A stretch of 64,000 nt of DNA from Balanoglossus misakiensis (taxonomy: Eukaryota > Animalia > Hemichordata): contig CM082578.2 of the NCBI GenBank assembly GCA_040954595.2, positions 3,826,831 through 3,890,830 of the forward strand, in the 5' to 3' direction. Below, piece after piece: positions 2,791-55,194 of the stretch (position 1 is the stretch's first letter; each line of letters starts with the position of its first letter). The position numbers and the translations under genes are program-made. The notes beneath the pieces were generated by a model. The model had not been told where the DNA came from and did not search any database. It was given only the letters and a program-made list of their open reading frames with translations.

Positions 2791-2802
2791 TTACATAAAT
2801 TT

Positions 2803-15299: not shown

Positions 15300-15415
15300 A
15301 TTTGGGTAAATTTTGCAGATACTTTTGTACCAATGTGCTGAATTCATATTTGCATATTTCTTCACCAACATATCTCGCAGCAGAAGTAAGTCAATATCTG
15401 AATAATGCAAATGTT
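15300..15415 (-). pseudogene. Inverted degenerate copy of CTL-GAIN exon 50091-50161
   Basis: Minus strand reads attcag|atattgacttacttctgctgcgagatatgttggtgaag (DIDLLLLRDMLVK) versus attcag|atgatgacttacttctgctgcgggagagattggtcaag (DDDLLLLRERLVK). Confidence 0.8.
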
Positions 15416-21661: not shown

Positions 21662-21757
21662 GTGTCACCAAAATCCGACATCAATTCTACCCTGTATTTG
21701 TGTAATCACCTGACTGCTTTCAAGGCAATAGTGGGAATCGTCACATCTGGTGGATGA
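21662..21757 (+). pseudogene. Orphan terminal GPS exon, paralog 2 of the CTL-GAIN gene
   Basis: ttgaag|VSPKSDINSTLYLCNHLTAFKAIVGIVTSGG*, followed by the same ttagcacaggggcgtcc 3' motif as the other two copies. Confidence 0.8.
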
Positions 21758-24402: not shown

Positions 24403-25604
24403 ATGGCTTGCCGGAGAAGCTGTAAAATGTTACGAGATTGTCGTGAAATACCTTTGAAGTTAACGCTCGTCGCTTCATTCGTAATGTTTTCCATGGCATT
24501 ACTGCAGCAAGCAGGTAAGACACCAATTTTTGGTTTAGCACGTTCAGAAAGTTTGAAGTTCCTCAAAACATAAATGTTATCATTATTTCATGTATGATTG
24601 TAATTAAAATAACGATTTGATATCCAGATTGCAAGAGCGTTTACGGGTGGATGAATAACGATAGAGCTTACACATTTTGTGAGCGATTGGGTCTTCGCCT
24701 TGTTAAAGATGACAGCGAAAGAAAACACGCAGCTATACAAAAGACTTTAAGAGAACGAGGCGTATTAGGCGTGTGGTTCTGGATAGATGGACGGGTAACT
24801 GACAACGGAACCGTAGTCACGACAAGAGACGGGGAAATTTTAACCTACAAGCCAAGAACTTACAAGAGATTGGGAGGACAGTGCGTCTCACTGGAGTGAG
24901 TTGAGCCTTTTGACGATATAATTAAATATGAAAAATGATGTTTTTGTGGTCATTTTAATACAGCTTAACTTAAATCAATCACAGGGAATCGTGTGCAGAG
25001 GCATGAGATCTTTGAAATTTATCAGTATTGACAGAATTGATATACATTTGAATAATATCCAGATGTTACAATTGGCAATGTCTTTAGAAGAACATTATTG
25101 ACAATTGCACACCCATATACCTCGATTTTATGAGAAATTTAAAAATGCAACTTTGAGATATGTCCAGTTTCATCTCATCGTTACCTTTGAACACCAAACT
25201 TTCTCTGAAAAACGTGGTACAACATTTTACCTCATTTGTCTATTTTTTTCAAAATTTTCGATCAGGTTCACCTAATTCTCAATTATCCGTGGGTCTTAAT
25301 CAAATTATGGGGAAAATGTAGAAAACGTTTCTATAGAAATGTACGGGTTGACAGGCGTTAAGGGGTGAAACTTATATATACATGTACTTTCATAACTTTT
25401 TAATTCACAGAATTGATTGGCTATATCTTAAATGTTGGAAAATGATTTTAGCTTTATGTGAAAATGCAAGTAAGTTATACTTGAATGAAGTTTGTTTAAT
25501 GTTTTTATTTTGCATTCTATAACATTTTTTTTCTGTTTTATCACGGGAGTGATACCGTCGCCTTTAGCTCGCGTGTGACAGGTGAGCTAATGTCGCCACC
25601 TTTT

Positions 25605-25636
<32 letters not shown>

Positions 25637-28600
25637 TTGTTTGTGTGTGTGTGTCTGTCTGTCTGTGTGCACGATATCTCAAATACGGTTTCGATCAGCT
25701 TTGGTACACATGTTCTATATGCAAATGACAAGAAAAGATTAGTTTTTGTTGTGTGTGACTTGCGAATTAATCGAGTTATGAAAAAAATAGAACAAAAATG
25801 ATGACTTGACGAGGGTGCTATAACTTATTGAATAGGCGGTCGAGACAAACGTAACGCGAACGTGGAATCATTGACGCGCGTGCACAAACAGGGATTTGCC
25901 TAATGTTCGAGTGGTACACGATTACTTCTGACCATGATTGAGAGAAAACAGAACCAAAGGAGGTAAAGAAGTTTGATGTATTGTTATTTCGGGCAGCTTA
26001 CAGTAACAGCCAAGATGGCGGCTGCAATCCGGACAGTGACTTAGCAATATCGCCACCGATATCGCTGAACTCTGTTTTAGTAGGCCTAATTCAATCAGAA
26101 CTCAGCTAGGCATTTGAACCCATGCATTGGATGCATTTATCTCGCAACTCTTATCAGATCATGGAATTGTTACATCTCCTGGTACAGCTCATTTTGCAGG
26201 GTAGGTTATGCTCAGTGCATAAAAGCGACTAACAAAAGATTTAATAAAACATACCCGATATGCTGTTTTTTCAACAGTGTCATTAATTTTTGTGTAGGTA
26301 AATACCATGTAAGGTGTACAATATCACTATACTTGCTTACGTCCGCTGGGACTTCAAGCAGATGGTGCCTTCCAAGTTTGAACTCGGCGCGTGACACATG
26401 TGATTGTCCAACGAGTTAGGTCACGTCCCTGACCCTGACGTTTGTCAAAGTCGTTGACGGTTGTGCTGTGAAAAGGACACCGATTTCAAATTTCATACCG
26501 CGGTTTAACGCAGCAGACGTACGCTCAAAACAACTGCACAGCGCACTGATCTGTGAAAATATACTGTCGCTTCAAAGTACGGATTCACGGTTTATGTCCA
26601 CAACATAGAATCGGGCGATCGGAAGAAACCCCGGGCCAACGGTGCACCGAACAACACCGTTCCCGCGCTGAAGTGGATCCCACAATGCAATGTCTGTCCA
26701 CACCACAAAGGCCACGCAAAATACCTTTCATACATGTGACATTTTAAAATGCGTCTTATTGAAAACAGGGTTTACTGTCTTACCTTATGATAGAAACAGT
26801 GTTGCAAGGATTTTTTCAAAGCTACTATTCACAGTAGTTTTTGTTCTTTAAGTGGAAAAACTGTATTGGTTTATTATCGGTGTGTGGTTTTTGTCCTCCT
26901 TTTCCTGGAATACTAACAGTGAAGTGCATGTGCTAGATCAAAATAGATTTTTTTATTCTATTTCGGGAAAGAAATGGCGTTGTTTTCTATTCTGCAGCAT
27001 CGTTCGACTTAACCACCACACTGAATGGTATGGTGGCTACATACCAGCTATGTGAGAAGCTTGGGTTGCGTCTTCTAACTGACACCACTAAATGGAAAAC
27101 CGACCAGTACTGTGTGCCCTTTAGAGCAGCTGCAGATCGACAGTGGGATATAAAAATATGGATTGATGCCACCATCACGGCAGATGGCACTGTGAAGACA
27201 AGCAGCGGTTTGATATTGGAACACACGCGTTTTGCTCCCAATCAGACTCTTGACGTCGGATCGTGTATTTACGTAATGTGAGTTGCTGTCTCTTCAAGCT
27301 AATTTCCACATTGCCAGACAGTAGATACTAGTATAGTTTGTCATTGCTTTCATTATGTTGACTGTTATAGAGTTTGAACTTTTGAGATTACATAGGAGAA
27401 ATGATGGCAATTGAATAATTTGAATATGTGTGTAATTAGAATATGTGTGGGGGGAGTTAGTAGGTAGGCAATGGACTCCCTCGCGTATGGTTCTTTGAAA
27501 CCCCATTGGAACAGACAACAAATTGGTGTCGTATAAACCTTCAGTGTATTGTGTCGAAACGTTTAACGGAGGACAGAACGACACGTGCAAGGACGCTTAC
27601 ACATGTAAAGTCTTGTCAACTACAAGCCTATTCGAAAAACTAACGTGGCTACTTCTACCCCCCCCCCCCCAAAGTAGCAATTTTGCGGGAAAAAACACTC
27701 AGCGGTGATTGGGCACTACTGCAGCATCTCTGGCAGGGCGTCTACGGGTAGAATCTTCTGCCTTTCGGTTTGTGAAGTGCGGCGTTGGTGTTGTGTCCAC
27801 GGGTATACTTCAACGTCCGTACTGGATTACAATCCGTCATCCATCGGACTATGATTCGCGAAAGAGAGTTCCTTAGAGACGACTTGCAATGGATACAGCT
27901 TGTGTATGGGTATGTTTGTTGGACCATTAACAGTGTCTAGTTTGGCGGAACATGCAAGTTTATCGTTCCCGTAAATAAGCTTGCGTACCGTTCCCAAATG
28001 CCATTTCAAGCGTTTGTCGGTGTAACTATGGATAATTACAACGTCCCCGACTTTGACAACATTGACCCCCCCCCCCCCCCCATTGTCTATATTTCCGGTT
28101 GCTCCGTGTCTCTCACGGACCGCAGTCAAATACTCAGGCGACCATCTTCGCCAAAACTGTTCGTGCAGTCTGGACAAGTGTTCATATCTCTTGTTGACTT
28201 GGTGATTGTCAGAGTACGTTGGATCAAGTGTCTCTTCTTCAGTGACCACTACGTAGGGTAGCAAGGTCAACATTCTGCCGTGAAGCAGGTGATTTGGGGT
28301 CAGCGCTAGACGAAACATACATTTGTAAGTTAGCGGTCGGTAATTCAAGACTGTTTCAATTTCAGTCACGACATTGGCGAGTCCATCGAATGACATCAGC
28401 GCACGACCAAGCGTTTTCTTTATCGCGTTTTTGTCAGACCAATTAGCCTCTCCCAGAAGCCGCCGAACCAGGGAGCTCGCTTTGGTATAAACATCTAAAC
28501 ATCCACTGTACTCGATGTGCGGCGAAAAAGTCATTGACTTCGGGAGGTCGAGCAATTCTTTGATTTCCTCGGCTGTAGACAAATAGGTTGAGGCGTTATC

Positions 28601-31600
28601 AGATAACATGCGACTCGGCAAAGAGAGCATCTCGCGACAAATCTTCTGAACGCGTGCATAAAAAGTCTTTGTTGACATGTCTGGCACCAGCTTAAGGTGA
28701 ACGGCACGCGTCACTGCGCACGTAAACAAACAGATATACATGTATGCTTTGCCTCGCGTTCCATCTTTCGATTTGGTATACAGATTTCCAGTGAAGTCTA
28801 AGTCCGTTACTGAAAACGGACGAGCTATATTCACACGGTAGCTCGGCAACGGAGCTTCTACGGGTTTTGTGTAAGGTTTCCCGGTAACCTTGTCGCATAC
28901 CACACGTTTACGTAAATATTGCGTACGATGATGCGTATTTTGGGGATCCAACATGTTTGTCTAATTCGTGTCACTGTAGATTGGACTCCCTCGTGTAACA
29001 TCAATTTGTGCGCCTTCCATACGATTAAAGCGGGTAGATCGTCTTATTTTATCCTTTGTTGATAAACATTATTTTTACCCACAATGCACCTGTTTCCATG
29101 TGTGCAAGCAAGATTCAAGATGGATGCGGCTTAGGTGGTGTGGGTCACGCGCAACACACCATGGGGGTTCCAACGTCAGTAACCGTTCATTTGACTTCCG
29201 GCTCGCCTCGAGTACACACGTTAGCAGTGTCTGGACGATAGCTTTCTTTGGACCTTTTACGTAGGATATTTTCGATTTTTGTGACACCGGACATTTAGTT
29301 GCGCACAGATTGGTACCAAGTTCGTTCTCTGTGATATTTTCGGCTCGCTTGACAGGTTTAACCGTCTATTCGGATCGATGTACTGGCCGCGGGGCTATGC
29401 GCATACGCTGGCGGGGCGCGCGTAGCTGCATGATGGCCGCCGAGCGTGAAAAGCTTTACCGTAGGCCAACATACCTTTGCAGCTTTTCGATTCGTTCTAT
29501 TACAGCTTAGTTTTCTTCTCAAATATGTACAGTATTTTTTAAATATCTCACACCAAACCGCAAATAAACGAAAACCAGAAGACTTTTTTTATTTTACGCA
29601 CAATTACAAGAAACCTACATACATGTTTGTAAATATGTGCTGGTTAGTTACGCAAGTCAAACGGCGCACGGTCTTAACTACCACATAAAAAATCCTATGT
29701 AAGTGCTTGAAAGAAAATTGTATTGCCACTGGAATGGTACCGATTGCGCACAGAAAGCTACACGCGTGACACTGCTAGGTCGACCATGTTTTGCTCATGA
29801 AGAGCGGGTTAAACCGGAAGTGACGTCGTGACCCACACCACCTTGATGCGGCTGAATGTTTTTTCTCGCTAAAAGTTCGAAAGGGGCCGTTGTACAAGTT
29901 TTGAGCTGTTTTGGGGTGCTTCTATGTGCCGTATGATTGAGGTGTTCTCGGTAACGGCGATTTGTCCATGGGTTTTGTTTTGAAGTTGGAAATTCTAGTC
30001 GAAACTACTGCGCAACAGATCGGTTGGGGCGGCACTGGCCATAAGACACAGCTTGCCACAAATAGCATGGTTTCCACAATCAGCTTGTGCTTTTTGATCA
30101 TTCACACTAAGTTCATCTTGAACCCAAATGATTCTTTTAGTGACAAACCGCCCACTATTCAACAATTGTGTATTTCTGACAGTGCACGCGCCTGTTTATG
30201 CGGCGCAATTTTACGATGATATGTACATGTATTCCCCTGTAGCGCGAATAAGCCCTGCTTTGCCGGGAGCACGCAGACCTATATCAGGGCTAGTACTACC
30301 GTAACGAGATTAAATTGCTCAACGTCCCACACCAAAGACGACCCCGTAACATTGCCGACCTCACTACGAACTGAAAGCACCCCTTGGAATAAACCTTAGC
30401 TCAGTTCTTTAACGACATTTAATCTTCAAACAAATTTGTTTTAGCTGGCGCAGAGACGCCAAAACGTGTGACACTGTAAATCATCGCTGCGCGGAGCTGC
30501 CTAAGTGACATCGACTGTGTCCTGACCGCGGCTGCGCCCGAGCATACTTAGCAATTATCGCTGCAAATCTCAGCCAATTCGTGCAGTTTTCCTCTCGGTC
30601 GGTTATCATTTCTTTCGGGCAGAATATACTGGTAGTTTGTACAGCGTCATAAAATATACGTCAAACGCAGTCTGCCTCCACGAGAGCGAGGATGATTACT
30701 GTACACGGCAGTGGTACTTCTATCTTCCGGGCCCAGCTTACAAGCTGCCCGGTGTTCTGTGTGCGATCTACACTGCCTGGGAATACCCTTTCTCGTACGC
30801 AAAGCGAAAGAACCATCTTCAGTTTTCCTCTCGGTCGATTATAATTTCTCTGTTCGAACACAGAATATACTGACATTTTGTAAAACTTCATAAAATGTAC
30901 GTCAATCGCAATCTGCCTCCACGAGAGCGAGGATGATTACTGTACACGGCAGCGGTACTTCTATCTGCCGGGCCCAGCTTACAAGCAGCCCAGTGTTCTG
31001 CGCGCGCTCTACACTGCCTGGTAATACCTGTTCTCGTACGCTAAGCGAAAGAACCATCTTCAGTTTTCCTCTCAGTCAATTATAAAATCTTTCCGATCGA
31101 TCACAGAATATACTGACATTTTGTAAAGCTTCATAAAATGTACGACGTCAATCGCAGTCTGCCTCCACGAGAGCGAGGATGATTACTGTACACGGCAGTG
31201 GTACTTCTATCTGCTGGGCCCAGCTTACAAGCAGCCCAGTGTTCTGCGCGCGATCTACACTGCCTGGTAATACCTGTTCTCGTACGCTAAGCGAAAGAAC
31301 CATCTTCAGTTTTCCTCTCAGTCGATTATAATTTCTTTCCGTCCGAACACAGAATATACTGACATTTTGTAAAGCTTCATAAAATGTACGTCAATCACAG
31401 TCTGCCTCCACGAGAGCTAGGATGATTACTGTACACGGCAGTGGTACTTCTATCTTCCGGGCCCAGCTTACAAGCTGCCCGGTGTTCTGCGCGCGAACTA
31501 CACTACCTTGGAATACATTTTCTCGCACGCAAAGCGAAAGAACCATCTTCAGTTTTCCTTTTAGTCGATTATAATTTCTTTCCGATCGAACACAGAATAT

Positions 31601-34600
31601 ACTGACATTTTGTAAAGCTTCATAAAATGAACGACGTCAATCGCAGTCTGCCTCCACGAGAGCGAGGATGATTACTGTACACGGCAGTGGTACTTCTATC
31701 TTCCGGGCCCAGCTTACAAGCTGCCCGGTGTTCTGCGCGCGATATACACTACCTGGGAATACCTTTTCTCGTACGCAAAGCGAAAGAACCATCTTCAGTT
31801 TTCCTCTCAGTCGATTATAATTTCTTTCCGATCGAACACAGAATATACTGACATTTTGTAAAGCTTCATAAAATGAACGACGTCAATCGCAGTCTGCCTC
31901 CACGAGAGCGAGGATGATTACTGTACACGGCAGTGGTACTTCTATCTTCCGGGCCCAGCTTACAAGCTGCCCGGTGTTCTGCGCGCGATCTACACTGCCT
32001 GGGAATACCTTTTCTCGTACGCAAAGTGAAAGAACCATCTTCAGTTTTCCTCTCAGTCGATTATAATTTCTTTCCGTCTGAACACAGAATATGCCCTGAC
32101 AATTTGTAAAGCTTCATAAAATGTACGTCAATCGCAGTCTGCCTCCACGAGAGCGAGGATGATTACTGTACACGGCAGTGGTACTTCTATCTTCCGGGCC
32201 CAGCTTACAAGCTGCCCGGTGTTCTGCGCGCGATCTACACTGCCTGGGAATACCTTTTCTCGTACGCAAAGTGAAAGAACCATCTTCAGTTTTCCTCTCA
32301 GTCGATTATAATTTCTTTCCGTCTGAACACAGAATATGCCCTGACAATTTGTAAAGCTTCATAAAATGTACGTCAATCGCAGTCTGCCTCCACGAGAGCG
32401 AGGATGATTACTGTACATGGCAGTGGTACTTCTATCTTCCAGGCCCAGCTTACAAGGTGCCCGGTGTTCTGTGCGCGATCTACACTGCCTAGGAATACCT
32501 TTTCTCGTACGCAAAGCTGGTCCGTTGAGAAATAGTTTATAGCTATTGGAAGCCCGCCCTCACATACCGGAAATGAGCACTTATATGTGACCTCTTATGA
32601 ACCCTGTTTTTACCGCCATTTCTGTTTACACGTCGTGAACACTGTACGGACACTGTTCCTGTGAAACCTGTTGGTTTACTGTTTTGCTCGCCGATTTACT
32701 GTTCTGGAGTTACAGTGGAGTCTTGCCAAAGAAGTAAGAACTCTTTGCTATTGTTTTTAGATGTTTCAGATGTTAGATCGTGTTGTTTAGACTGTTCGAG
32801 AAATGCTATCAAATATATCAGACTGTCAGTTCAGTTGATTATGGCCGTTTGCACGCCTGTTATCCGTTTTTCAGTATTGAAAATATGGTCGGTTTTCGTG
32901 AATTACTGATAGAGACTGTTGAATCAGTGAATATAGACTGCCTGTTTTCAGATGTTATTCAGAGCGATGGACATGAACCGGCTGTCCGTTTGAGAGGACC
33001 TTTCAGTGTTGAATGCAAACAGCTATCTGGCCATGTCGATTTTGTGTTTAGTTACACAAACGAGGATTGATGGTCACGCTTGTGTAGAGGCGTGTTTTGG
33101 ATTCACTTGTACTTATTGTGAATTGTTGTGATTGTTACGTTTTCAGATCGAATAAAGTAAAGTATCTCAGAGCGAGTTTATTTTAACTTATACGGTTACC
33201 AAGACTCTGCTGCCTGTTGTTTGGTCAACATTCCCTGAGGGTCGCATCATTCAATTTCTATAAACTGCTAATCCGGATCCTAGAGAGTGTGGATATATGA
33301 TGGCGGACACTGAGAATCAAGCGAACGAAGCAAAGAAGAAAAGAAGGAATGCCAAATCGTCACTGACTCGTCACGGTAATGGCCTGAGAACTCTGATAGA
33401 CAATTACCGTCCCAGAAATGAAATTGATCAGTCACTGCAGAAGTTTATTGAAGTATATGATGACCTGATTCAGAAACATGAACAATATATTCAGTATATT
33501 GATGATGATGAAGAGTTTGAACATGAAGAAATATGGGTAGAAGAATGCCAACAGAAATTCATAAGTATGAAAAGTCAAGCAATAGATTATGAAAACAGAA
33601 GTCACAATGAACACTGATGATGTAGTGAATGCTAATGCTGAGACAGAAGACAACAATGAGAATGAAGATGCACATGAAGTGATTGAAAACAATGCTGGTG
33701 CCCCAAACCCTGCAACAGACAATACTGGACATGATGATGATGTGATTGTACAACATGCTGAACTGCCCGCTAAGCCCCACCTGTCTTGCAGTTTTAAAAT
33801 GGAAAAGCCAAAGCTTCCGAAGTTTACAGGTGATGTCCGTGAATATTTCACATTCCGAGCTGATTTCAAGCACATGGTTGACAAGAGATACAGTAAACGT
33901 GATGATGTTGCACTGCTGCGCACCTGTTTGCAAGTTAAACCACTTGACCTGATCAAAGGCTTAGGCACAGATTATGATGCTGCATGGGAATACCTAGACT
34001 CAATTTACGGGGATCCACGGTTTGTAGCAGACATTATTATGCAAGATATTGTGAAGTTCAAGACGTTACGAGATGATGAAGACGGTCGCTTTTGTGAATT
34101 AGTACACCTAGTGAGACGCAGTTACAATGTATTGAAATAAGTAGGCAGACCACATGATATGGACAACAATCACATTCTGGCAATGATAGAAAAGAAAATG
34201 AGTGCTGATGACTGGAAAGTTTGGTGTCGTTTACTTGAGACTGAAAACCAGCCTGCATCAATGGAAGCGCTTATGGAGTGGATGACACAAGAAATGAAAT
34301 CCCGCATGAGAGCAACTGCCCCATTACGTAATCCAGCGCAAAATACATGTATGTATGCTAAGCAGTCAACTACATATCAGAGACCAAAGCTGCAACGCAT
34401 TACAAGTGTTGGATATGCCAGTCATCCGATCACTGAGTAGATCAGTGTAGAAAGTTGATGTCTATGTCTCCGGATGAACGGTTGAAGATGATAAAAGATG
34501 GTCATGCATGTTTCAGCTGTCTGAAGAAAGCCGGTAAGAACCACAGTGCAAAAACCTGTACTAGACGCCGTCAATGTCAAGAAATGAACAATGGTATGCG

Positions 34601-37600
34601 ATGTAACCTGTTCCACCATCCCCTGCTACATACTGGTAGAAAACCTGTCGCAGCAGCTAGGTCAGACAACAACACTGTTGGCGTGGCAACCATATACAGC
34701 AAAGAGACACTACTGCCTGTCGTCTTAGTAAATGTGATTGATAACCAAAGTAGACAGCAGACCGCCAATGCACTGTTAGATTCTGGTGCACAGATCAGTC
34801 TGATCAAGACATCACTAGCAGAAAGTCTGCAGCTCAGAGGTAAAAATATGAATACTACTATTACGAAGGTAGGAGGTGAAGAGGAAGAGCTCTGCACAAA
34901 GATGTATGCCGTCCCTGTCCGCCCCATTAACAAGAAGCAGATTTTCACTGTCAAAGCAGTTGGCATCCCCTCAAACAGTGGAGACATAACGGAAGTGAAT
35001 GTCGTTGAACTGTCACAGCAACTGAACATCAAGCCATATGAAGTCCACCGAGGAAGTGGATCAGTCAACCTGTTGATTGGCATCGATCATGTTAAGATGC
35101 ATGCTGGAAAAACTGTAGAAACTGATAACCTGATAGCCCGTCAGTCACCACTGGGTTGGGTGATATTTGGCGCATGAACTGGAACGCAGTCTAGAAACTG
35201 TCAAGTACTGCATATCAAGTTCTCAGCACCTGTTGGCTTGACTGATTTCTGGATGACTGAAGCCATGGGAGTAGCTGTGAAGTCATGTACATGTAAACCG
35301 CATAACCTGAGTCCTGCAGAAGCAGAAGAAGCAAGAATTATTGATGAATCCTGTATCAAAGTTGGAAACCAGTGGTTTATACCGTATCCTTGGAAGAAGA
35401 ATCCGAGTCTGCTACCTGATAACAGAATCCAAGCTGAGAAGAAACTGTATGCAACTGAGAGAACCAGACTGGTCCTGTTGACTATATTGCGCATCATGAA
35501 GTCCTGAAACGAGAAAGTAAAAGTACGCCGATCCGTATTGTTTTCAACTCGTCAGCTGTATACGAAGGACATTGAATGACTACTGGATGAAAGATCTAGA
35601 TCTGCTCAACAATCTGTTCGGAGTCATGCTGAGATTCCGTGAAAATGAAACCGCAGTTATTGGTGACATATCGAAGATGTACCACAGAATCCTGATACCA
35701 GAAACTGATCAGCATGTACACAGATTTCTATGGAGAAATTTGGATGTCAGTAAGAAACCTGAAATCTATGTGAAAACTGTTCTCACGTTTGGAGATAAAC
35801 CTGCACTCGCCATGGCTCAGACAGCCCTGATACGTACAGCGGAGGAAGGACAGAGGAAGTATCCTGAAGCCGCACGTATACTGAAAGAAAACACATACAT
35901 GGATGATATTTGTGATTCTGTCCATGCTGTAGATGAAGCCCAGAAACTGACAAAGCAGATAGATGAAGTCCTGGCTGAAGGTGGATTCAAAGTGAAAGGA
36001 TGGATGTCAAACATGCCACTGAATGAAGAGCCACCCGATGCAGATGAACCGAAACTGAAGACTCTCCCAAATGTAACAGAAGAAAAAGTACTAGGAACAG
36101 TATAGGAGCCGAGAGAAGATGTTCTCAGCTTCAAAGTTAGCCCAAACTTTGACAGATATGTAAACCCAGAAGAACCTGATGATCTGAAGCTGACAAAGAG
36201 AAGAATTCTGAGTGAAGTTGCACGTATTTTCGACCCTATTGGCTTTGCCACAGCTTTCCTGATTCGGGCAAAGATAGGTATGCAACAGTTATGGCAACAA
36301 GGTTTTGACTGGGATGAGGAGTTACCAGAGCAATTACAGTACCAATGGATGAAGCTGTTCAGAGAGATGAATGAGCTAAACAATGCAAGCTTCAACAGAT
36401 GTCTTACACCGCCCGATGTTGCTGGAGATCCGATACTCTGTATATTTTCTGATGCCTCTGATGAAGCTTTTGGTGCCTGTGCGTATTTGAGATGGCAACT
36501 GATTGATGGTACATATGATGTGAGATTCATAGCAGCCAAATCACGTGTCGCACCGCTGAAGAAACTGACAACGCCGAGACTGGAACTACAAGCAGCAGTC
36601 GTAGCCAGTCGTCTGTACAAGACAATCACTGAAGAAACCAGATTCCAGATCCTGAAACCGATATTTATGACTGATAGTAGAATAGTGTTAGCCTGGATTC
36701 AGAGCCTGTCCAGAAGATTCAAGCCGTTTGTATCGAACCGAGCTGGAGAAATTCAGAGTAATACAAATCCGTCTGACTGGAGACACATACCTGGAGAATT
36801 CAATGTAGCAGATGATGTATCCCGTGGTATATCTGTTCAGCAGTTGACCAAACGCTGGCAACATGGCCCACAGTTCCTGTATTTACCAGAGTCAGAATGG
36901 CCACGAGAAGACTCTTGTACCGACCAGACTGAGATAGATAAGGAAGAGCGTAAAGTACAGCAGATCCTTGTCACACAGGAGAAACCTGAGATTATTGACT
37001 GTAGCAGATTCTCATCATGGGTGAGACTGATCAGAGTAACCGCATATGTCCAGAGATTCATTCAGAATCTACAAGCCAAGAAAAACGCAGCAACGATGAA
37101 GAATGGTCCCCTGTCACCTGAAGAACATGAGGACGCAGAAACATACTGGATAATCAGAGCACAGAGAAGTCTGCATGAACGCGTCACAGCTGGAGATTTC
37201 AAGACACTGAGTCCGTTCACAGATGAAAAGGGAAGACTGAGAGTTGGAGGACGAGTAAATGCCTCTTTCATGTCATATGAGTCAAGGCATCCAGTTCTGT
37301 TACCAAACCAACATCCTGTATCACTGTTGATTATGCAATACATGCATCAGATTGGACACACAGGAGTTGCAGTCACAGTAGCTAAAGCCAGAAGAAAGTA
37401 CTGGATCCTGAAAGCACAAAACCTGGCCAAGAAGATAAAGTTCAGATGTGTATACTGCTGAAAGAGAGACAGCAAAACTGAGACGCAGATCATGGGAAAT
37501 CTACCGATGCAGAGATTAGCCCCATACACACCGCCGTTTCACTACACCGCTTGTGATTACTTTGGACCGTACCAAGTGAAAATCAGCCGCAACAAGACAA

Positions 37601-43600: not shown

Positions 43601-46600
43601 ACGCCTGTTATCCGTTTTTCAGTATCGAAAATATGGTCGGTTTTCGTGAATTACTGATAGAGACTGTTGAATCAGTGAATATAGACTGCCTGTTTTCAGA
43701 TGTTATTCAGAGCGATGGACATGAACCGGGCTGTCCGTTTCAGAGGACAATTTCAGTGTTGAATGCAAACAGCTATCTGGCCGTGTCGATTTTGTGTTTA
43801 GTTACACGAACGAGGATTGATAGTCACGCTTGTGTAGAGGCGTGTTTTGGATTCACTTGTACTTATTGTGAATTGTTGTGATTGTTACGTTTTCAGATCG
43901 AATAAAGTAAAGTATCTCAGAGCGAGTTTATTTTAACTTATACGGTTACCAAGACTCTGCTGCCTGTTGTTTGGTCCACATTCCCTGAGGGTCGCAAAAG
44001 CGAAAGAACCATCTTCAGTTTTCCTCTCAGTCGATTATAATTTCTTTCCGTCCGAACACAGAATATACTGACATTTTGTAAAGCTTCATAAAATGTACGT
44101 CAATCGCAGTCTGCCTCCACGAGAGCGAGGATGATTACTGTACACGGCAGTGGTACTTCTATCTTCCGGGCCCAGCTTACAAGCTGCCTGGTGTTCTGCG
44201 CGCGATCTACACTGCCTGGGAATACCTTTTCTCGTACGCTAAGCGAAAGAACTATCTTCGTTGTAGGGAGTTATTTTTCATACCAAACAGTGTAAGAATC
44301 CCTAAGTAAGGTTCTAACCAGGACCGTTCAGTTTTTACGGCTGGGGGCGGCAAAATCCAGGGGAGGTCACTTAAAGTTTGAAGTCCAAAAGGGGGTCATC
44401 TTTTTTAAAATCGTTTAGGGGGAGTCCTCAAAATTGCAGTTTCGCGCCCTTTATTTTACAAACACATTAGAAGATTCTAGGTTTATCACTTCTTTACACC
44501 CCATTTGCTGACGTTTTCCGATCTCGAACTTGTGACACAGACTTTGGTCGCCGCCATCTTCTCTGTTGTTAGGACAGAGCAATGCCTTATCGAATTGACT
44601 GTTCACTAAACGTCTGTGACCGAGGCTACGGCTGGAACATGGCATTCGTGTGAGACGAGCTACGCGCTTTAACGCGGGGAACTTCGTGACGAAGTCAAGC
44701 GCTGCATTATGAATTCTACTGCCACAACGAAGTACTTCATCTTCGTCTACGAACAAGTTCAGTTGTCGGACGATAGGGGCACGTTTACTCAAGTTCAACT
44801 TAACAGATTGGACAGTGTCCCCATAATACTGGTATTGTACAGCTTTAACTTGCTCCACTATCAAATTTGACACAAGCACAATCTACATTTCCACCAGATG
44901 ACAACCAGCTGTATCTTTCATTTTCTCATCGTGACTCTCCCTCAGCCCTGTCTTCGATTGAAACCTGCATTCTCGATATCATGGAATGGATGACCCATAA
45001 TAAACTCCAGCTCAATGACAGTAAAACCGAAGTACTTCTGATTCACTCCAAGTTTAACAGCTCACCAGATCCTGTTAACAGTGTCAACATTGGTTCCACT
45101 TCTGTCATACCAGTTTAATCTGCTCGCAATATTGACATGATCTTCGTACACCTGCAAATCGATCTACAGTCACCTTCGCCGAATTGGATCTATACGACGT
45201 TACATCACCAACGAGACTTGCCAAATTTTAGTCTAACTTGACTACTGTAACTCACTCCTGCATGGTCTCCCGGAAAACACAATCGCCTTATTACACAAAT
45301 AGCTCAGAACACTACAGCCAGAATAGTCATACAAACCTGGAGACTTTCAAAAGAAAACTGAAAACTCATATGTTCAAAAAAGCATACAGTGTGGTTTAAC
45401 CATGAGCGTCATTGGCACGATTTCTTGTTTTGGATTTTGGCGCTATATAAACCTTTGTTTGTTTGTTTGTTTGTTTGTTTGTTTGTTTGTTTGTTTGTTG
45501 GTTGTGATTCTGTTCATTCTTCCGTGCCTTATATAGGTAGGTTTCCGCAACCGCGCGATGAATCGGAGAACGTAAGTTGTCACTCGCAACAACTTATCCA
45601 AAGCGTTGAATCGGGAAATATCGACCACAGTAAAATTTCCGAAATCATTTCAATCAATTAGTGGCAGTAACTTCCGCTTCAAGAAGTAGTGGTGTCCCTG
45701 AGTGGACGCGGAATCTCGGAGTTTGCGCCGGGTACATGTCAAGTCCGCTTTGTTCAAGATAGTGTACCATGTCGGTTTCGTTTGGTACGGTTCCGGAATG
45801 TAGTGCGCGTGTATCGACCACAGAACTGGGCCATTCAATTGTCGATTTCAATCTGGTAGAAATCACGTGCAGTATGCGCGCGTTCGGATCAGCTGACTTA
45901 CAGGGAATACGTGCGGGCCCAGAAAGCAAATAACCAAACTTAGACGATACCGTGGTTGGGCCGTTCGCGCCCGAAATAACATGCGAGCCAACAAAATTCC
46001 AATACTGGTCGGCACCATTAGTACACAGGCCACGATTCATCACTGAAGACTGGATGAGCGAACGGCAAACCCTTCAAGTGACTAAAATTGTGAATTTCGT
46101 GGGTGATGATGTTGGTCAAGTCCGATGATATTTCAGGGGTGATCATTATGTCAATTGTTGGAGTATTCCCGTTTAATTCAAGCTCCGTTAATTCGGTAAA
46201 CGGCACGGTGCGAACATTTAAGGATTTGTCACCGAAAGTAGACAGCTTGATGTGTTCATAATGCGTAATTTTTGCAGACATCATGGGAGCAAATTTCTCA
46301 GTCACGAATGTTTTGTTTGCTCCCACATCAAACAATATGACAGCACGAACGGGGGAATTCTTTCCCGCGGACAACGGAACGAACGCGGTCTTGAGTAACA
46401 CCGGTCCTGGGTTTCGCGGCTTATCGTCCGGAGATGTAGAGATTTTGGTAAAAGCTACGGTGCGTTTGTTGTGTCTGGGCAGATGACGCGGTCGGTTGAC
46501 CCCTTGGTCGGAGTCGTTGCGGTGGCAGCTGTATTATGTTGTAGCGTGGAGTGGTGGCGTTTCTTACAGATTCTGCGGGAGTATTTGGATTTACATTCTT

Positions 46601-49600
46601 CAACTCTGTGTTTACCCAAGCAATTAAAGCAAGGTCCGCCTTTCTTGACAATATCTAGTCTCTGATGTGTATTTGTAATCACGGTGCAGTTCGATGCGAA
46701 ATGTGACCCCTGGCAAAATGGAGAGGTCTTAGGCGTGGATCTCGGTTTTTGTTTAGTCCTACGGTGGACGATACCGACACTCCTCTGCTAACTTAATCTG
46801 CTCTGCTAACTATACCTGCTTTGCTGTCGACCTACTCTGCTATGCTAAGTCTGCTCTGCTGAGTTAATCTGCTCTGCTAACATAATCTGCTCAGCTGACT
46901 GCTCTACTGTCGACCTGCTCTGCTATGCTAAGTCTGCTCTACCATGGAGGTACTAGTACCCCCATGGCTCTACTGAGTTAACCGGAAGTACTGGAGTACA
47001 TTTTATGGATAAGATATTCACATGTGTTTTCTATTATCACTTACCGCTTTCTCCGTTCTCCGGCCGTCCAAATCAGTGTCCGAGTATATAACAACTTCAG
47101 CAAGTCCGTGAGACGAGCGTATGTTTGTTCGTAAAAATGTACTCCAGTACTTCCGGTTAACTCAGTAGAGCAGACTTAGCATAGCAGAGCAGGTCGACAG
47201 TAGAGCAGATAGTTAGCAGAGCAGATTATGTTAGCAGAGCAGATTAACTCAGTAGAGCAGACTTAGCATAGCAGAGCAGGTCGACAGTAGAGCAGATAGT
47301 TAGCAGAGCAGATTATGTTAGCAGAGCAGATTAACTCAGTAGAGCAGACTTAGCATAGCAGAGCAGGTCGACAGTAGAGCAGATAGTTAGCAGAGCAGAT
47401 TATGTTAGCAGAGCAGATTAACTCAGCAGAGCAGACTTAGCATAGCAGAGCAGGTCGACAGTAGAGCATAATGACTTAGATATAGTTAGCAGAGCAGATA
47501 TAGTTAGCAGAGCAGGTTATGTTAGCAGAGCAGATTAACTCAGCAGAGAGCAGGTCGACAGCAAAGCAGGTAGTTAGCAGAGCAGATTAAGTTAGCAGAG
47601 GAGTGTCGGTATCGTCCACCGTAGTATCGTCCACCGTATGATTTTGGGTGAAACGATGCTGTGAATTCAGCGGCCGGGTGTACTGAAGTGTCAGCTATTG
47701 ACATCTCACCTGAATGTTTTCCGGTTTGAAGGACGTGTATCTCGTGAAGAATGGCTTTCCTCAGAGCCGCGCGCTAGTGTCCATGGAGAATTGCCGTGGT
47801 CTCTCGCGATATGTTCTCGTATGTTGGGCGGCAATTTCTCTCGTATCATAGGCACTAAAAGTTCGCCATAAGTGTTTCCTCCTTGCCCAGCGACTGGAGG
47901 CCCCGTACGTGATTTTAGATACAGTCGTAAAAGTCGTTCAAACTTTGTGCATCTCCGTTTGGTTTCTGTAGATTCCATAACGCGGTCATGTGAGCGTCAA
48001 CTATGGTATGGTTTTGTCCGTACCTTTCTTTGAGCATTTCAGTCGCGTGTGAGTAGTTAGCCTCGGTGAGCGACAGTCCGCCAACGGCTCTCGCTGCTTC
48101 GTCTTTCAGCACACTTCTCAGATAGGTAAACTTCTGAATGTTATCTAAATGGATGTCCGAATCGATCGAGGACTTGAAAACTTCGAAGAAAGATGGCCAC
48201 TCTATCACATTTCCAGAGACAGTTTGTAGCTGGAGTTTCGGCAATGTTACAGTCTTTTGCTGGGCGGGAGCGTTTGGGTTGACGACGACTGGATTGGCTG
48301 TGTTTTGCATAGGAGCGGATGTTTCTAGTTTCATTCGATTTCTCCTCATAAATGTTGTGATGCGATGGATTCGATCAAAAATTGATGCTTGGTAATCACC
48401 AGAATTTCGTTTTCTTCATCAAATTGAGCATCGTCTGTCAACTCTAGTATTTTGATTTCAAGATCGGAGAGAAGTCGATACTTGCTTGAAAGTTGATTGC
48501 CAGGCCCCTCTAGTGTGTCGAGTGTATCTGCTTTTTCGATACTTTCGTCTTCAAAATTGTTCAGGAAAGTTTCAGATCGGTTGAGTAGTCGAGTCAATTG
48601 TCCACGTTGACCACGATGTGATCTCCTGAGCTTCAACAATGGTGCGGCTGCATGATTGATCCTCAGTATGTCCCTCTGCCTTGGCGTTTGATTCCTCTTC
48701 CGTTGTGTTGGCTTCGAGTGTATCCTGGTCTCGGCGCCAAAAAATGTGGGGGATTTATTAGGTAGGCCGTGGACTCCCTCGCGTATGGTTCTTTTAAAAT
48801 CCACTGGAACAGACAACAAATTGGTGTCGTATAAACCAAAAGATTCGGTTTATTGTGTCGACACGTTCAACAGAGAACAGAACGACACGTGCAAGGACGC
48901 TTACAAGTCTTGTCAGCTACAAGCCTATTCGAAAAACTAACGGCTCCTTCTACCCCCACCCCCAAAAGTTGCAATTTGTGTATGCAAATATAGTTTGAGC
49001 GGGAAAAACACTCAGCAGTGATTGGGTGAAAGTGATAACGGCCAGAACAACATACCTCCTCAGAATCAAAACAAGAACATGAAACTCATTTCTCTAAAAT
49101 GTGTGTATTTTTGCGTTTTCTTATCCCAAAGGTTACACTATGCTGCTAAAAATCACTACCTTTGCACTTCTGGTATTTTGTCAAGTTTGAGTTTTATGTT
49201 TTGGTAACTAACTTTACCTGCTATATCGTCTGAATTACGAAGCGCAATTTGAGCATGATACTTTACAGCTAACGCTCATTGCAATATCATTCCAACATGT
49301 GCCTTACAGCATAATACACATAGGATGTAGGACATTTATCGGACCCATGCCCATACAAAATTCGACTTTTAATATTCAACGATTTTTAGAAAATAAAGGC
49401 AGGGTATGGCTGCACGGTTAACGATTTTTTCGATAATGCAAACTTTGCAGGTTGGTCATGAGGCCATTCTGTAGCGATCATTATACACCGTATGATGATC
49501 ACTAAAGACACTGTACAGTAATCATTGTAGACATCGTAAACTTCAATAAGCATTGATCAGCGAATCTTTATACAGGTATCGCTCAGGTAAATGTGAATGG

Positions 49601-52600
49601 TTCACTGAAGACTGTAGTAAACCACTGGGTTTAATGTGCGAGGATAACGGTAAGTATATTCAGACAGTCCTTTCCAACACAATTGACCACCTGTGTAATT
49701 ATGTGGTGTGTATACATTCAACATATTCCATTATACATGGAACGTAAATAAAATGCATACGCATGGTAAATACATTTATCCGCGTGGAAGGGAGTCACAT
49801 TGGAAATATCAAAATGAATCACGGACCATTATTTGTTGCTTTTGGTAAATGGATAATTCAAACATCTTTGACCCAATTTATGGAAATTCGGTATATTGTC
49901 ATGCAAACATACATTTCCCTGGGGAGATTATGTTTCAATACATTTGTTGTATTTCATAGAAATTTGGCATTGAATGGCAAACATGTCTCTTGAGAGAACG
50001 TGTAATATATTCCTGTGCTACTTTAAGTCATGAGTGCATTCGCACTTTTAGAAATTCAATTTATATGCATTTTACATTTGCAACATTCAGATGATGACTT
50101 ACTTCTGCTGCGGGAGAGATTGGTCAAGATAAGTGCCGATGAATTCAGAACAGCAGATGGGGTAAGAAAGGTGTCAAACATTTGAGACTGATGTAGTTCA
50201 CTGTATTGTATAAAGCCACGGGTTAGTGAAATGCACTTAAACGTACTATTTTGTTGACATCTAAAGCTACATACTAAATGATTCCATATAAAGCCACGTA
50301 CTAAATTATTGTCTTCTCTTTTTCCAGGGTATTAGTGTAATTGACAAGTTGGACACGATAACCTCTGACCTTTCGAAGGAAAGTGTTATATTTGAAGGAA
50401 CAATTCTGTTTGCAAAAGGTATTGTTATATGTTGTTGTTTTAACCAAGATGATTATGTGACATCGGTTTCCATCACAACACCGTCCGCATTCAATATCAT
50501 CCAATGATGTAAATAGGATACTCGTATCAGACGCAGAAAAAATAGCACCTTGCAATTATTGAGCGCATCGAAAATGCGTTCATTGGTTTCCACAAATCAT
50601 GCAAATTATCGGTGACCGTCAGATACCTTACATGTAGCTAAGAGAAACTTTTAGAATTGGACGGGTCCAACTGTTGAATGATACGCTGAATTCGAAGTGG
50701 GAAGATAGGTCTCCATTATCTCTTCAAAATTTTCCCCTCATCATTTTCCCCAATGGTTACAAGAAATGGAACTCACTTCAGATTTTTCGGGCATTGGTGT
50801 AAAGCCGAGACTGACAGTCAGACAGAGTAAAAAACCTTTTAATGCCAATGATTACACATTTCAGAAACACTGAATGTCATGCAAAAAGTGATTGACAGAA
50901 TGCAGAACCTAATTGACACCAATCCGAGCGAGAAGCTGAATCCTGGGCAGGCAAACCACATGACAAAGATAACAACGAAAGTATTCGACCAGTTATCAAT
51001 GTTAATACTGAACGAGTCTAATTATGGACACGGACCAATCATCGTGAACACTTCTTCTCTTGTGCTGCATCTGGAAAAGAACTTTGTGCAGGACTTGTGC
51101 GACACCAATGTAATGATTGGAGATGGAAGTGGATTCAATATTCCACCAGTAGACAGTATGTTTCCACAATTGCCGCGGGACTCAGTCTTGAACAGGATGG
51201 TTTGTATACAAGTCGATAATCAGAAGACAATCTCACTTTCGTTTTCTATCGTACATTGCTCTATTCTTTTATATTGATATTTGTCTAACTGTTGATCTTT
51301 AGGCCAGTCAAGTCATTATGGGAATGAATTATACGCTGATATTTGCATCGAGTTAGTGCTTCTGTTGTCATATTTTACAAAATAAGTCCATAAACATTTT
51401 TAATTATGATCTTTGGTTTAATGTACGATTGCGTTGTTGTCACAATGCATTCAGATGCTCGAGGAATATTTTTTTGTAGATTTTCCGTTTTGGTGGGAAC
51501 CCCCACGGATTGGCAAATAAGACACATGGCTTCACTACCGATATACTGTCCCTGGAATTCAGAGATGAAGATGGTAATGAGATAAAAGGTTGGTTTTCAT
51601 TAACGCCATCAGTGGCGTCCTAACATTCGCATGGAACTCTCAAAAATACTTAGAAATCTTTGGAAATGACGTGCATTTCGGTTATAGATTGGGCTTGGGC
51701 ATCAGCAGTGTCATAATGAAATACTTAATATTGTGGATATAATCAGTTACGGAGAAATACATCATTTTACTAGTTAATGTGGCACCATTAAAACTAGATT
51801 GAAATGGCTCATATCTTTTTTAACAACTGTACACAGAAAGCCAGCGATGTATTAGTATAACAATGCTCGCTCATATTTTCATCGTGCGGGCGGAACTCGA
51901 GTAATGGCCCAATTGTGAGTTTAGTGTTGACATCAGTTTGAATTATCACAGAATATTTTCATTTTCAGTGAAAAATGCATCAGAGGATCTCGGCGTATGG
52001 CTTGGTAATTTTCAGACACCTATAAATGAAAGCACCGTCTCCGGATTGTACGTGGACAGTGAATCAGTCACCCACTATGCATTGGCAGTAACGGTAAACC
52101 TCAAACACTATATACAACTAAGCGACTTTTGCATGTTAGCAACTCTACTCTTTGAAAGTACCATCAAACAACCCATCTTGGAGTGATGCTCAGCCCCCCC
52201 CCCCCCCCGGGGGGGGGGGGGGTAAAGCCATATGTAAAAGCGCACAAATCATAACCATGGGGATTTATTTCTTAGCATGCAGCATGAACCATGCAATCAC
52301 CATCCTCTCTGTCATCATGATCCCAGATGTGATGCCCAATGACACAACACGTGAATGTAACTCGCAAAACCAAACACAGCCAAGGTTTACCTCAAAAAGT
52401 TCATTTGTGCCAATTGTTGAGTTCATTTTGTATTGATCTCTTATCGTTGTAGGCACTATCAAGGTTCTTTGCAATGCAAATCACCATGGAAACATCAGCG
52501 CCTGTCTTCGAGACTACTACAGCATACGTGTCACTGGAAAGACCTGACGCTGTCGGTGGCAACGTTGGTTTCCATTATGTAACTGACTTGGTATTTGCAG

Positions 52601-53634
52601 GGTGTACATCATCCATATTTCTACCTGAAGCAAATATCACCAGGACGGGCTTGTATTACATAGTCTTTGACCTTACCAGTGGTAAGATTGTGGAATATTT
52701 TCATGATTAATGCAACTATTGTACAATGATCCTTGATTAAAATATATATAGTTTTTCTTACCTTTTTGGCTGTTCATGTTACTGTTAATTTCAAAAATCA
52801 ACATGCATATGTAGAAAGTTATGCTACAATCTTGCGGTTGTAATATAGAGCTGCCATTTGTTTTTTAATTTTACTATTCAACTTAGACCGGTCCATCTAA
52901 ATATGCTTACCAATTTATACATTTACATCTTGTTGATGCCAGATTATGACTGTATGTTGCAATTTGAACAAGCGATAACGGCCGCTGAACCCGTTCAATC
53001 GTCCTGCATACACAAGTGTACACAAAACACATGGTATGCGTCCTGTATTTCTTTTGCCATTAGCAATATCAGTAAAAAAATGTTAATGAATGTCATTGTC
53101 TGGGTGCACACTACCAGTTGATTTTATATGGAATCGGTTAATGTAACTGTTCTGTATTTCTTTTTCTCTGCAGCCCATGGGATTGACATCAAGGTTCTCA
53201 CTACTCAACACAGATGTAGCTACTTTGATGAGAATAATTGGCAGAATGATGGTTGTAAGGTATGCAACTTGATTAATATCTTCTAAATTTTGCAAACAAA
53301 TTGAAATGCTCCATGTACTTCCAAGTGATGAAACTAAAGACAAGTGGCAATCAGTGTGATTTTAGGGGATACTAATCATAAATATGCAGCAGAACTAAAA
53401 CTGCAGAAGGTGATGCACCTTCCGATTAATGTCTACAAGTTCTATTTAAAGTAACGCTGGGACGTGAACCAGGTGTTTGATCTTGTTTTAATTGCAAAGA
53501 AACACCCACTGATGTGTCAATACGTATTTTCTCTGCTTGATATCGTGCAGGTGTCACCAAGATCCAACTTCAATTCTACCCTGTGTCTGTGTAATCACCT
53601 GACTGTTTTCAGTGCAATGGTCGGAGTTGTTTAA
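24403..53634 (+). CDS. Secreted C-type lectin + GAIN/GPS protein (polycystin-1/REJ-like ectodomain, no TM). Exons: 24403-24514; [24628-24895 OR 26998-27277]; 49576-49649; 50091-50161; 50328-50418; 50865-51199; 51480-51588; 51969-52093; 52453-52681; 53174-53259; 53551-53634
   Basis: All junctions are GT-AG with compatible phases and no internal stops. Signal peptide LKLTLVASFVMFSMALLQQA. CTL motifs CE.LGLRL / WID / C...CEW...C...LMCE. PKD1-like NPH..DILSLEFRDEDGNEIKVKN. Full GPS: CSYFDENNWQNDGCKVSPRSNFNSTLCLCNHL|TVF, then stop. Confidence 0.8.
24628..24895 (+). CDS. C-type lectin N-half exon, variant A
   Basis: tccag|...|gtgagt, phase 1 to 2; DCKSVYGWMNNDRAYTFCERLGLRLVKD...WFWIDGR...GGQCVSL. 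Confidence 0.8.
26998..27277 (+). CDS. C-type lectin N-half exon, variant B
   Basis: ctgcag|...|gtgagt, phase 1 to 2; ATYQLCEKLGLRLLTD...IWIDATITADGTVKTSSG...GSCIYV. Confidence 0.8.
30586..32517 (+). repeat. Tandem satellite, ~241-247 bp unit, about 8 copies; resumes at 43997-44258
   Basis: Unit anchored on agttttcctctcagtcgattataa...gtctgcctccacgagagcgaggatgattactg, recurring at about 30821, 31063, 31308, 31551, 31797, 32043, 32288 and 44017. Confidence 0.95.
38275..40026 (+). mobile_element. Helentron-associated (HINE-like) element carrying about five 240-bp repeats
   Basis: Inserted in a T-run; 5' GGTCCCAT..ATGGGACC hairpin, (TGTA/TGGA)n, 3' subterminal ATGGGACC and a short stem-loop; tandem units at about 38820-39960. 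Confidence 0.75.
41065..41419. repeat. ~144-bp palindromic MITE plus tandem re-duplication of its right part and flank
   Basis: TAAGGTTATTCACAAAATACCGGGATTTATGTCC ... GGACATAAATCCCGGTATTTTGTGAATAACCTTA; 41105-41260 is repeated at 41264-41419. Confidence 0.85.
44870..45498 (+). mobile_element. 5'-truncated L2/CR1 LINE fragment inside the outer BEL
   Basis: DDNQLYLSF..WMTHNKLQLNDSKTE; L2-like 3' end gcgctatataa followed by a (GTTT)n tail. Confidence 0.8.
46760..47638. mobile_element. Foldback element with modular repetitive arms, inserted in the outer BEL gag
   Basis: TACGGTGGACGATACCGACACTCCTCTGCTAAC and its inverse at the right end; inner inverted GAGTTAACCGGAAGTACTGGAGTACATTT; the right arm has an 87-bp unit about 3.5 times. 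Confidence 0.85.
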
Positions 53635-55194
53635 TCTGATGGACGATTCCACGTTTAGCACAGGGGCGTCCGTTTGGTCTACAGAAGTGACTAATCAGCT
53701 GATGCGACGAGTTCCAAACAAATGATGTACCATTCAACATGATTTCGTTTTTTCTTCTCAGATTTATTTTAGACTTTATGAAGCAAAAGATGTTCATATA
53801 AGCGTTTTGGAAATCGATTTTTCTTGATAATGCATTAAATGTAAAAATCATAGATTAGTTAGAGGTGCCCATAACTTTTCCGAAAGACAAGCGTTCCGTT
53901 GAGAATTTGATATGTCTTTAATAAGAATGCATTTTGTAAATTGGTTGCATGCGTCTATGATTGAGTTTGTTCATAAAAGACATGTACGATGTAATTTATT
54001 AATTTCTTTGTAATCTGTCGGGATATGATATCTATCCATGTATACATGTATACATTGGTCAATATTTCTGTTTTGTAAAAAACAGTACTGTCACTTGCCA
54101 TTTTAATAATCCGTAATTGTACTAGTCATTAATTGGTGGACTTATAGTATTCTGAAACTTTAAAACAAATTGTATGTGTTTGTCTTGGATTGCTCTGGAT
54201 TATTCTGGTTGACATTAAAGCGTACGCTTACTGTTCACTATGTTTGTGTTGCGCTTTATTTTCCACGAATCAAATTATATTTAATTGATGAAGCCCTCTT
54301 CCGCCATTTCCATCCCTTTTGGGGGCACAAAACAACCGTGCAAGTTGTGCATAGTTTTTTTCCTGAATAACTGAAATCAAACGTAAGAAATATGCAAAAT
54401 CAACTGAACTGAACTTTTCCTTTGAGAAGAAATAAACCACAGAAATCACAGTAATCATGACCATCACTAAAAACTACTTATACCATTGTTTGTAAATGTA
54501 TCCCAATATTGACCACGAAAAGTGTTAACGAACAATAACAGGTAAAGAAAACGATTCATGTTCCCTCTGTATCTTGGTTAGAATTCTGAACCAAATCATC
54601 TCTTCAGTATGTGATGAGAAATTCCTGATGTGTGTAAGCTTTGATATAAAGTCTACTGAATCACGTGTTTCATTTACAAATACCATTCAGAACAGTGTAC
54701 CTTATTCATTGGTGCATAAGGCCAAGGAATTACACTATCCAAGTGTTCTAGTGGATGAGGTCAAGGTGGGCAATGGAACCTTTTTCATACAATTTAGCAT
54801 TTTCCAAAAGTGGCGGCCATATTCCTTAGCGGCAAAGCTTCGTTATTTATCTGGTTAAAACGTTTCTGGGTAGATTTTGCAGATACTTTCTGACCATATG
54901 TGCTGTGTTGAATTCATAAGTGTTGTGATTGCCGATGTCTCACCTTAGTGGGTAAAGGATACTAATCAAAGGTTTCTAAGGGTCTCTTGGAGGTCAGTAA
55001 AAGGCGTGCTGCTTGGTCTCTGTTCTAAGGTGGAAGAGGTAGAATAAACTATTTCCGCCCAAGGGGTGGGTAGGGTCAGTGACGTCATGGGCAGATCCAC
55101 AACACTCATCCCCACCATATTTTGAAGGGCTTCGTCTTCTTCCCCCAAAACACCGGGGGATAACACAACATAGAACACAGCGATAACAAAATAG

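Follow-up and report, generated by a model that had tools for sequence, protein, structure and literature searches.

A window of 64,000 nucleotides from the acorn worm Balanoglossus misakiensis (GenBank assembly GCA_040954595.2, contig CM082578.2, positions 3,826,831 to 3,890,830 of the forward strand; numbered below from its first letter) contains a gene in which lectin-like domains are followed by a GAIN domain and then by a stop codon, ten residues after the HL of the GAIN cleavage site (GPS). We consider it probable, though not strongly so, that its 13 exons form an intact gene whose lectin-GAIN product is likely secreted, and that the product belongs to a family of free polycystin ectodomains, likely specific to acorn worms, in which cleavage has become vestigial. 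Acorn worms, in other words, likely secrete a family of receptor ectodomains that are free of any receptor.

The gene and its protein

Rebuilt from the coordinates, the exon chain runs on the plus strand from 24403 to 53634 and encodes 640 residues. All junctions are GT-AG, the exon phases are consistent through the chain, and the only in-frame stop is the final codon (TAA, 53632-53634). A preliminary description of this DNA had proposed a phase-consistent chain that leads to the GPS and a stop; the chain, its splice sites and its stop hold, while the exons number 13 rather than 11 and the lectin-like domains two rather than one. The 11-exon version also stays open, over 527 or 531 residues, and each of its junctions is GT-AG. 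Adding a 59-nt exon (25411-25469, AG...GTAAGT) links 24628-24895 to 26998-27277 and makes the gene colinear with XP_070568693.1 of Ptychodera flava (P0001 below, the likely orthologue), except for the HYR repeats of P0001, for which the 64-kb window has no exons. Within the intron in question, 58 AG..GT segments are open and in a suitable phase; three of them have the W..C..CE pattern, and all three overlap 25411-25469. We also considered that the two lectin exons might be mutually exclusive, an idea dropped once this middle exon was found to join both.

The domain order is that of a likely signal peptide, two C-type-lectin-like domains, the GAIN domain and the stop. Exon 1 (24403-24514) has the ATG and the likely signal peptide, and ends in phase 1. 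The first lectin-like domain starts in exon 2 (24628-24895, 43% identical to residues 54-141 of P0001) and ends in exon 3, the 59-nt exon absent from the preliminary description; the second starts in exon 4 (26998-27277, 40% identical to residues 177-262 of P0001) and ends in exon 5 (49576-49649), which is preceded by a 22-kb transposon-filled intron. The helical subdomain of GAIN starts in exon 6 (50091-50161) and continues through exon 7 (50328-50418) into exon 8 (50865-51199), where the helices lead to the beta subdomain. Exon 9 (51480-51588, 61% identical to residues 777-812 of P0001) and exon 10 (51969-52093) belong to the beta subdomain, and in exon 10 a jelly-roll insert begins that occupies exon 11 (52453-52681). 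The GPS is split by the last intron into a first half in exon 12 (53174-53259, C..W...GC) and a second half in the coding part of exon 13 (53551-53634), which reads C.C.HL|TVF and continues with SAMVGVV and the TAA. The four cysteines and the H-L|T-x-F motif are intact. The gene model has no space for a REJ domain.

In Pfam, the 27-residue last exon matches GPS with an E-value of 4e-4 and exon 2 matches Lectin_C with 0.004, both slightly short of the curated cut-offs because the queries were single exons; on P0001, Lectin_C is matched with 8e-10. The best match of the last exon in the Protein Data Bank (PDB) is the GPS of ADGRG6. NCBIfam gave none in seven, word-based protein searches with single exons gave no matches, and a search of the Atlas with exon 8 gave matches below 0.9 only.

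The next question is whether the protein is secreted. Signal-peptide exons commonly end shortly after the hydrophobic core, and exon 1 stops just past a 15-residue hydrophobic core (residues 19-33, by hydropathy only) that lies behind a long basic N-region. That long basic region, similar in P0001, would also suit an uncleaved signal anchor, which would make a type II membrane protein displaying the lectin and GAIN domains. Four relatives (P0004, P0019, P0028 and P0035) begin with the short hydrophobic cores typical of signal peptides, again by hydropathy, and together with the position of the exon end they make the anchor very unlikely. A glycosylphosphatidylinositol anchor at the other end was dismissed by reasoning: the hydrophobic end contains the GPS cysteines, and the orthologue is without the tail.

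The frame of the gene is under selection, because a 640-codon frame rarely survives neutral substitution in simulation (intact in 156 of 2000 runs at 2% and in 0 of 2000 at 8%) and because the orthologue keeps the same end. One could see the gene instead as a young pseudogene in a family with birth-and-death turnover: decayed remnants flank it, its 22-kb intron holds pieces of BEL/Pao elements, and the HYR repeats of the orthologue are absent. Besides the simulation, the intact frame and 24 splice sites and a truncation held in common with an orthologue of just 46% identity speak against decay, and of all the readings considered here we give this one the least credence.

Relatives end at the same point

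Exon 8 was searched against 1.84 billion representative proteins, with no length limit and E-values up to 0.001. It matches 31 proteins, the best of them 43% identical. Thirty were looked up (P0030 was left out) and comprise 27 P. flava RefSeq models, one protein of Glandiceps talaboti and two fragments; NCBI names three of the relatives polycystin-1-like 2 or 3 and one "sperm receptor for egg jelly-like". P0001 is 37% identical to the window protein over both lectin domains and 45% over 363 GAIN residues; its last residues are HLK before the stop, and so are those of P0034, a longer isoform.

Twelve of the relatives extend as far as the final C-x-C of the GPS, and every one of the twelve stops 0-8 residues after the -1 position. 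Since these complete relatives are mutually only 21-52% identical over GAIN, the truncation is old. The other 19 matches end earlier, 14 of them within five columns of a window exon junction; these early ends show that the short relatives have intron positions in common with the window gene. Pfam finds HYR, Lectin_C, F5/8 type C, SUEL, PAN, NHL and GPS among 30 of the 31 relatives (P0006, a 102-residue fragment, was left out), and PLAT, REJ, channel or seven-transmembrane (7TM) domains in none of the 30. A family profile run against proteins of 672-2000 residues returns the isoforms P0001 and P0034 as the only members among 7989 candidates, with no membrane-bearing form. No 7TM domain follows GAIN in the window gene model, the scanned relatives or the long-protein search, and neither in the window protein, with its stop ten codons after HL, nor in the twelve complete relatives does GAIN stand directly before a transmembrane helix. 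The loss of the membrane part is very probably real.

That the truncation is a family trait had been proposed from two paralogous terminal exons in the window; it is borne out by the twelve database relatives, and not by those two exons. Both do exist, on the plus strand, with stops 9 and 14 codons past HL. The copy at 14782-14862 has lost the T-x-F strand to a 12-nt deletion and has its own stop; the copy at 21662-21757 has a GPS cysteine changed to tyrosine and its own stop at codon 32. Because they are lone, decayed remnants with differing stops, they are no proof of a family trait. In the alignment the stop is codon 28 in the main gene and codons 31 and 32 in the copies, and a TAG at codon 36 is common to all three. 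Searching the window with the family profile turned up no GAIN exons upstream of either copy. The main last exon and its remnant copy differ at 26 of 136 sites, and the differences between the main exon and the 21662 copy are even over the codon positions (4, 4 and 5), as expected for a decaying remnant. What the two extra last exons reveal is turnover of genes at this locus rather than conservation of a stop.

Exon 6 and the intron upstream of it have left inverted remnants as well, on the minus strand (15334-15437, 15624-15682, 22603-22739 and 54861-54918); two of them lie just downstream of the last-exon copies, as traces of tail-to-tail paralogues. A degenerate pattern of the last exon gave one metagenome match, which we judged to be chance.

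Sequence downstream of the stop

The sequence from 53635 to 64000 is 85% repeated elsewhere in the window, and its sole unique stretch is 53679-55238. No transmembrane exon is seen in these 10 kb between the stop and the window end, in agreement with the preliminary description. The only hydrophobic frame, at 54148-54285, was tried as a transmembrane exon and rejected: it is matched by 72-125 of 300 shuffles, and its acceptor is weaker than all 12 true acceptors of the gene.

The window gene could nevertheless represent the 5' portion of a conventional PKD1L membrane gene, spliced early out of its last exon to transmembrane exons past the window, with the relatives being incomplete. Family models are indeed often incomplete, and an in-frame donor does follow 53619. 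This donor scores 2.7 with our own generic matrix, on which the 11 true donors scored range from 3.0 to 11.4, and when it is joined to the nearest strong acceptor (53762) just 21 residues are added before a stop. Neither the 31 matches nor the long proteins include a transmembrane-bearing form, and the loss of the catalytic histidine in five complete relatives lies upstream of any such donor. We find this explanation unlikely.

The stop is probably followed by a 3' untranslated region (53635-55048, plus strand) with poly(A)-type hexamers at 53834, 54214, 54431 and 55043. It may contain a 75-nt intron at 53687-53761, 52 nt past the stop, with its donor +136 nt into the last exon and the strong acceptor at 53762. 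The same donor is present in the 21662 copy, and the similarity among the three last-exon copies falls off at it. In all three copies the +1 frame runs through the stop region (53603-53722) without interruption; it might be likened to the segment before the first transmembrane helix (TM1) of PKD1L proteins, a likeness left unsupported by the PDB, where it has no matches.

Fold and ancestry

Two relatives were folded with AlphaFold: P0031, which keeps the residues of the final strand, and P0005, which is strand-less; their identity to the GAIN of the window protein is 29% and 44%. Their models reach a predicted local distance difference test (pLDDT) of 89.3 and 88.0 and both have the GAIN fold, with a helical subdomain A and a beta subdomain B, so that the AlphaFold check suggested in the preliminary description does give GAIN, on relatives. 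The residues past HL form the final strand (354-358) of the P0031 model. With Foldseek, the top six matches of P0031 are ectodomain structures from G-protein-coupled receptors of the adhesion class (aGPCRs), with GAIN included, and in a wide structural search P0005 aligns to ADGRG6 with Z 18.0 and a root-mean-square deviation of 3.3 over 219 residues, followed by six more aGPCR chains at Z 13-18.

A structure search of the Atlas, in which predicted models stand on both sides of the comparison, places a PKD1L2 cluster first, with a template-modelling (TM) score of 0.80 over 333 residues. The first three rows are PKD1L2, REJ-like and PLAT clusters (TM score 0.73-0.80), and the aGPCR clusters score 0.51-0.59. 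Because the search ranks these three above the aGPCRs, the GAIN of the family, as modeled, is of the polycystin (PKD1L) type. PDB searches returned no solved structure of a PKD1L-type GAIN, and the relatives are the first foldable stand-ins for one met in this analysis.

Within the GAIN beta subdomain of P0005, residues 206-321, corresponding to window exons 10-12, stand apart as a jelly-roll-like insert some 110 residues long. It resembles a carbohydrate-binding module at a middling Z of 8.8, and could be a second binding surface. As a separate observation, some 220-230 residues of the GAIN model can be aligned with chains from structures of ciliary doublet microtubules (9y6s_9f, Z 13.0; 9fqr_Hn, Z 11.6; 8glv_AE, Z 10.2; and 8j07_k3 with Foldseek), which suggests a membrane-free GAIN-like fold inside axonemes.

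Cleavage motif, strand and tail across the family

Among the twelve complete relatives, the four GPS cysteines are kept in all, the -1 Leu in 11 and the -2 His in seven, the catalytic histidine being lost in the other five. The H-L-T/S-x-F motif together with the strand is kept in three, eight have no T/S-x-F strand, seven end no more than two residues from the scissile position, and the tail past T-x-F is different in every member. In a tree built without the tails from 13 rows (the twelve and the window gene, with the 19 short matches left out), the window gene falls inside a clade with support 100/99 whose five other members are all strand-less. A single clade of strand-less members is rejected (p-AU 6.5e-6), and a larger tree with 23 of 32 rows agrees. 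From these trees the strand-less ends appear to have arisen at least twice, and we would put good but not high confidence in their being real.

This series bears directly on the model of the preliminary description, a self-cleaving protein whose caged ten-residue Stachel peptide would be a lectin-targeted agonist acting in trans. The intact motif and cysteines of the window gene speak for such a role, and synthetic stalk peptides are reported to activate fragments of PC1 and aGPCRs (PMC9672506, as far as the part consulted goes). The peptide is not the common product of the family, because the orthologue is without it; nor is the tail conserved in the five other complete members of the 100/99 clade, and the motif with its strand is confined to three of the twelve. 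Literature excerpts point the same way: the untethered ADGRE2 ectodomain was cleaved poorly, with membrane proximity raising cleavage across several aGPCRs (PMC12488864), and a cleaved strand stays tightly bound (PMC3321182). A conserved caged agonist is not sustained by these data, and we regard the model as highly improbable.

If the strands are lost, a second possibility is that the vacant groove has a use. Strand-less members might capture in trans the exposed Stachel of cleaved polycystins or aGPCRs, silencing them or adding a lectin head, and the strand-keeping window member would then be the closed form. The acorn worms would have distributed the parts of the polycystin receptor over separate genes, with empty grooves that silence or re-arm the cleaved receptors with interchangeable heads. 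It would fit that so many members end at the scissile position, that such ends arose at least twice, that strand-less P0005 still models as a full GAIN, and that aGPCR fragments are reported, in the part of PMC12300799 available, to reassociate and exchange. Erosion of a dispensable tail explains the strand loss equally well, however; strand loss is predicted to unfold GAIN (PMC3321182, in part), the strand-less ends could be models that run off at an intron, and the window gene itself keeps the strand. Both the groove and the splitting of the receptor seem to us rather unlikely, if worth keeping in view.

Proposed explanation and points against it

We return to the favoured explanation of free polycystin ectodomains. 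An ancestral PKD1L gene would have lost its first membrane helix and all that follows it, and its descendants would have multiplied and swapped the heads at their N-termini (C-type lectin, HYR, F5/8 type C, SUEL and PAN). The products may act as a gene-encoded counterpart of the shed N-terminal fragment of polycystin, with heads that bind extracellular surfaces or partners (mucus, microbes, gametes, or the glycans of a polycystin channel) and with GAIN as a stem or docking module locked by disulfides. As there is no membrane part left to release, selection would no longer act on cleavage or on the Stachel strand, and the stops would therefore have retreated to the last residues that the structure needs, the C-x-C and the -1 Leu. 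There are precedents, in the portions of the sources at hand, for a soluble N-terminal part: the PC-1 N-terminal fragment is a soluble channel agonist (PMC7728438), and the N-terminal part of LOV-1 is secreted into the matrix (PMC9829181).

Several points weigh against this explanation. EPN or QPD and WND are the sugar and calcium motifs of calcium-dependent C-type lectins, and all three are absent from both lectin-like domains of the window protein and from five relatives checked. The "glycan-binding" carrier of the preliminary description is accordingly unproven. Four of the twelve complete relative models start without a signal peptide, and the physiological role is read from domain content alone. 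The relatives are automatic RefSeq models known from protein records, the window gene is known from DNA alone, and gene models of the family frequently continue into an intron. A search for RNA data sets carrying 49500-54200 listed none, which counts neither way. A phase-2 donor, too, would produce endings such as HLT-stop or HLK-stop; against such a donor, no intron stands at this place in the window gene or in four relatives, and the histidine losses lie upstream of it. The long-protein profile search, which the tool itself notes to be weak evidence, left 623-671 residues and more than 2000 residues uncovered, and the fold is that of the two relatives.

Other features of the window

Pieces of a transporter gene of the MFS_1 (major facilitator) type lie at 2174-9444 on the minus strand, where 2174-2470 repeats part of the exon at 6990-8009, and a reverse-transcriptase fragment stands at the window start (2-1387). 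The BEL/Pao-type retrotransposon pieces of the 22-kb intron are at 27830-28960, 33586-37458 and 46021-49000. Tandem arrays, built of repeat units near 246 and 239 bases in length, occupy 30620-32517, 38824-39961 and 55239-63837, and the 239-base repeat family, on both strands, takes up most of the last 9 kb of the window.

Comparison with known systems

In the paper that defined GAIN, the part available states that all GAIN domains analysed directly precede the first membrane helix (PMC3321182). The family appears to break this rule outright, and possibly also the prediction of the same source that strand loss unfolds the domain. It offers a natural series in small soluble proteins, from strand with histidine, to strand without histidine, to no strand, and the series makes testable the role of GAIN beyond release of a tethered agonist, the stability of an empty GAIN, and the rebinding of the Stachel in trans; were the empty-groove reading true, the members would be natural, stable strand-less GAIN domains. 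Our literature search found no account of a GPS-terminated gene family without transmembrane helices, though domain tables for hemichordates in supplements could mention one, and the portions seen of PMC13197933, PMC9672506, PMC12716839 and PMC4890752 do not describe such a family.

The nearest known proteins are PKD1L2 and PKD1L3, which likewise place a C-type lectin domain before a GAIN with GPS, and to whose PKD1L2 cluster the fold of the family is closest; PKD1L3 is also without REJ (PMC1934368, in the part consulted). Unlike them, the family has no TM1, no PLAT and no channel of 11 transmembrane helices, stops at the GPS, and has often lost the histidine and the Stachel strand. The sea urchin genes SpREJ1, 8, 9 and 10, described in the same part of PMC1934368, are C-terminally shortened members of the PKD1 family in a related phylum, and SpREJ1, like the window gene, combines a GPS with two lectin domains. 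However, SpREJ1, 8 and 9 keep one transmembrane helix, SpREJ10 has neither a transmembrane helix nor a GPS, and all of them have REJ, whereas the present family keeps the GPS and has neither transmembrane helix nor REJ. The soluble N-terminal isoforms and shed fragments of aGPCRs and polycystins are, in the excerpts available, free extracellular ectodomains too (PMC11039983, PMC7728438, PMC9829181). Those arise by splicing or cleavage of a receptor gene (PMC11039983, in part), while here separate genes appear to encode the ectodomain alone, and their GAIN is of the PKD1L type with the jelly-roll insert. Taken together, the family would work like the shed N-terminal fragment of a polycystin and descend from PKD1L, while standing outside both the PKD1L channels and the aGPCRs.

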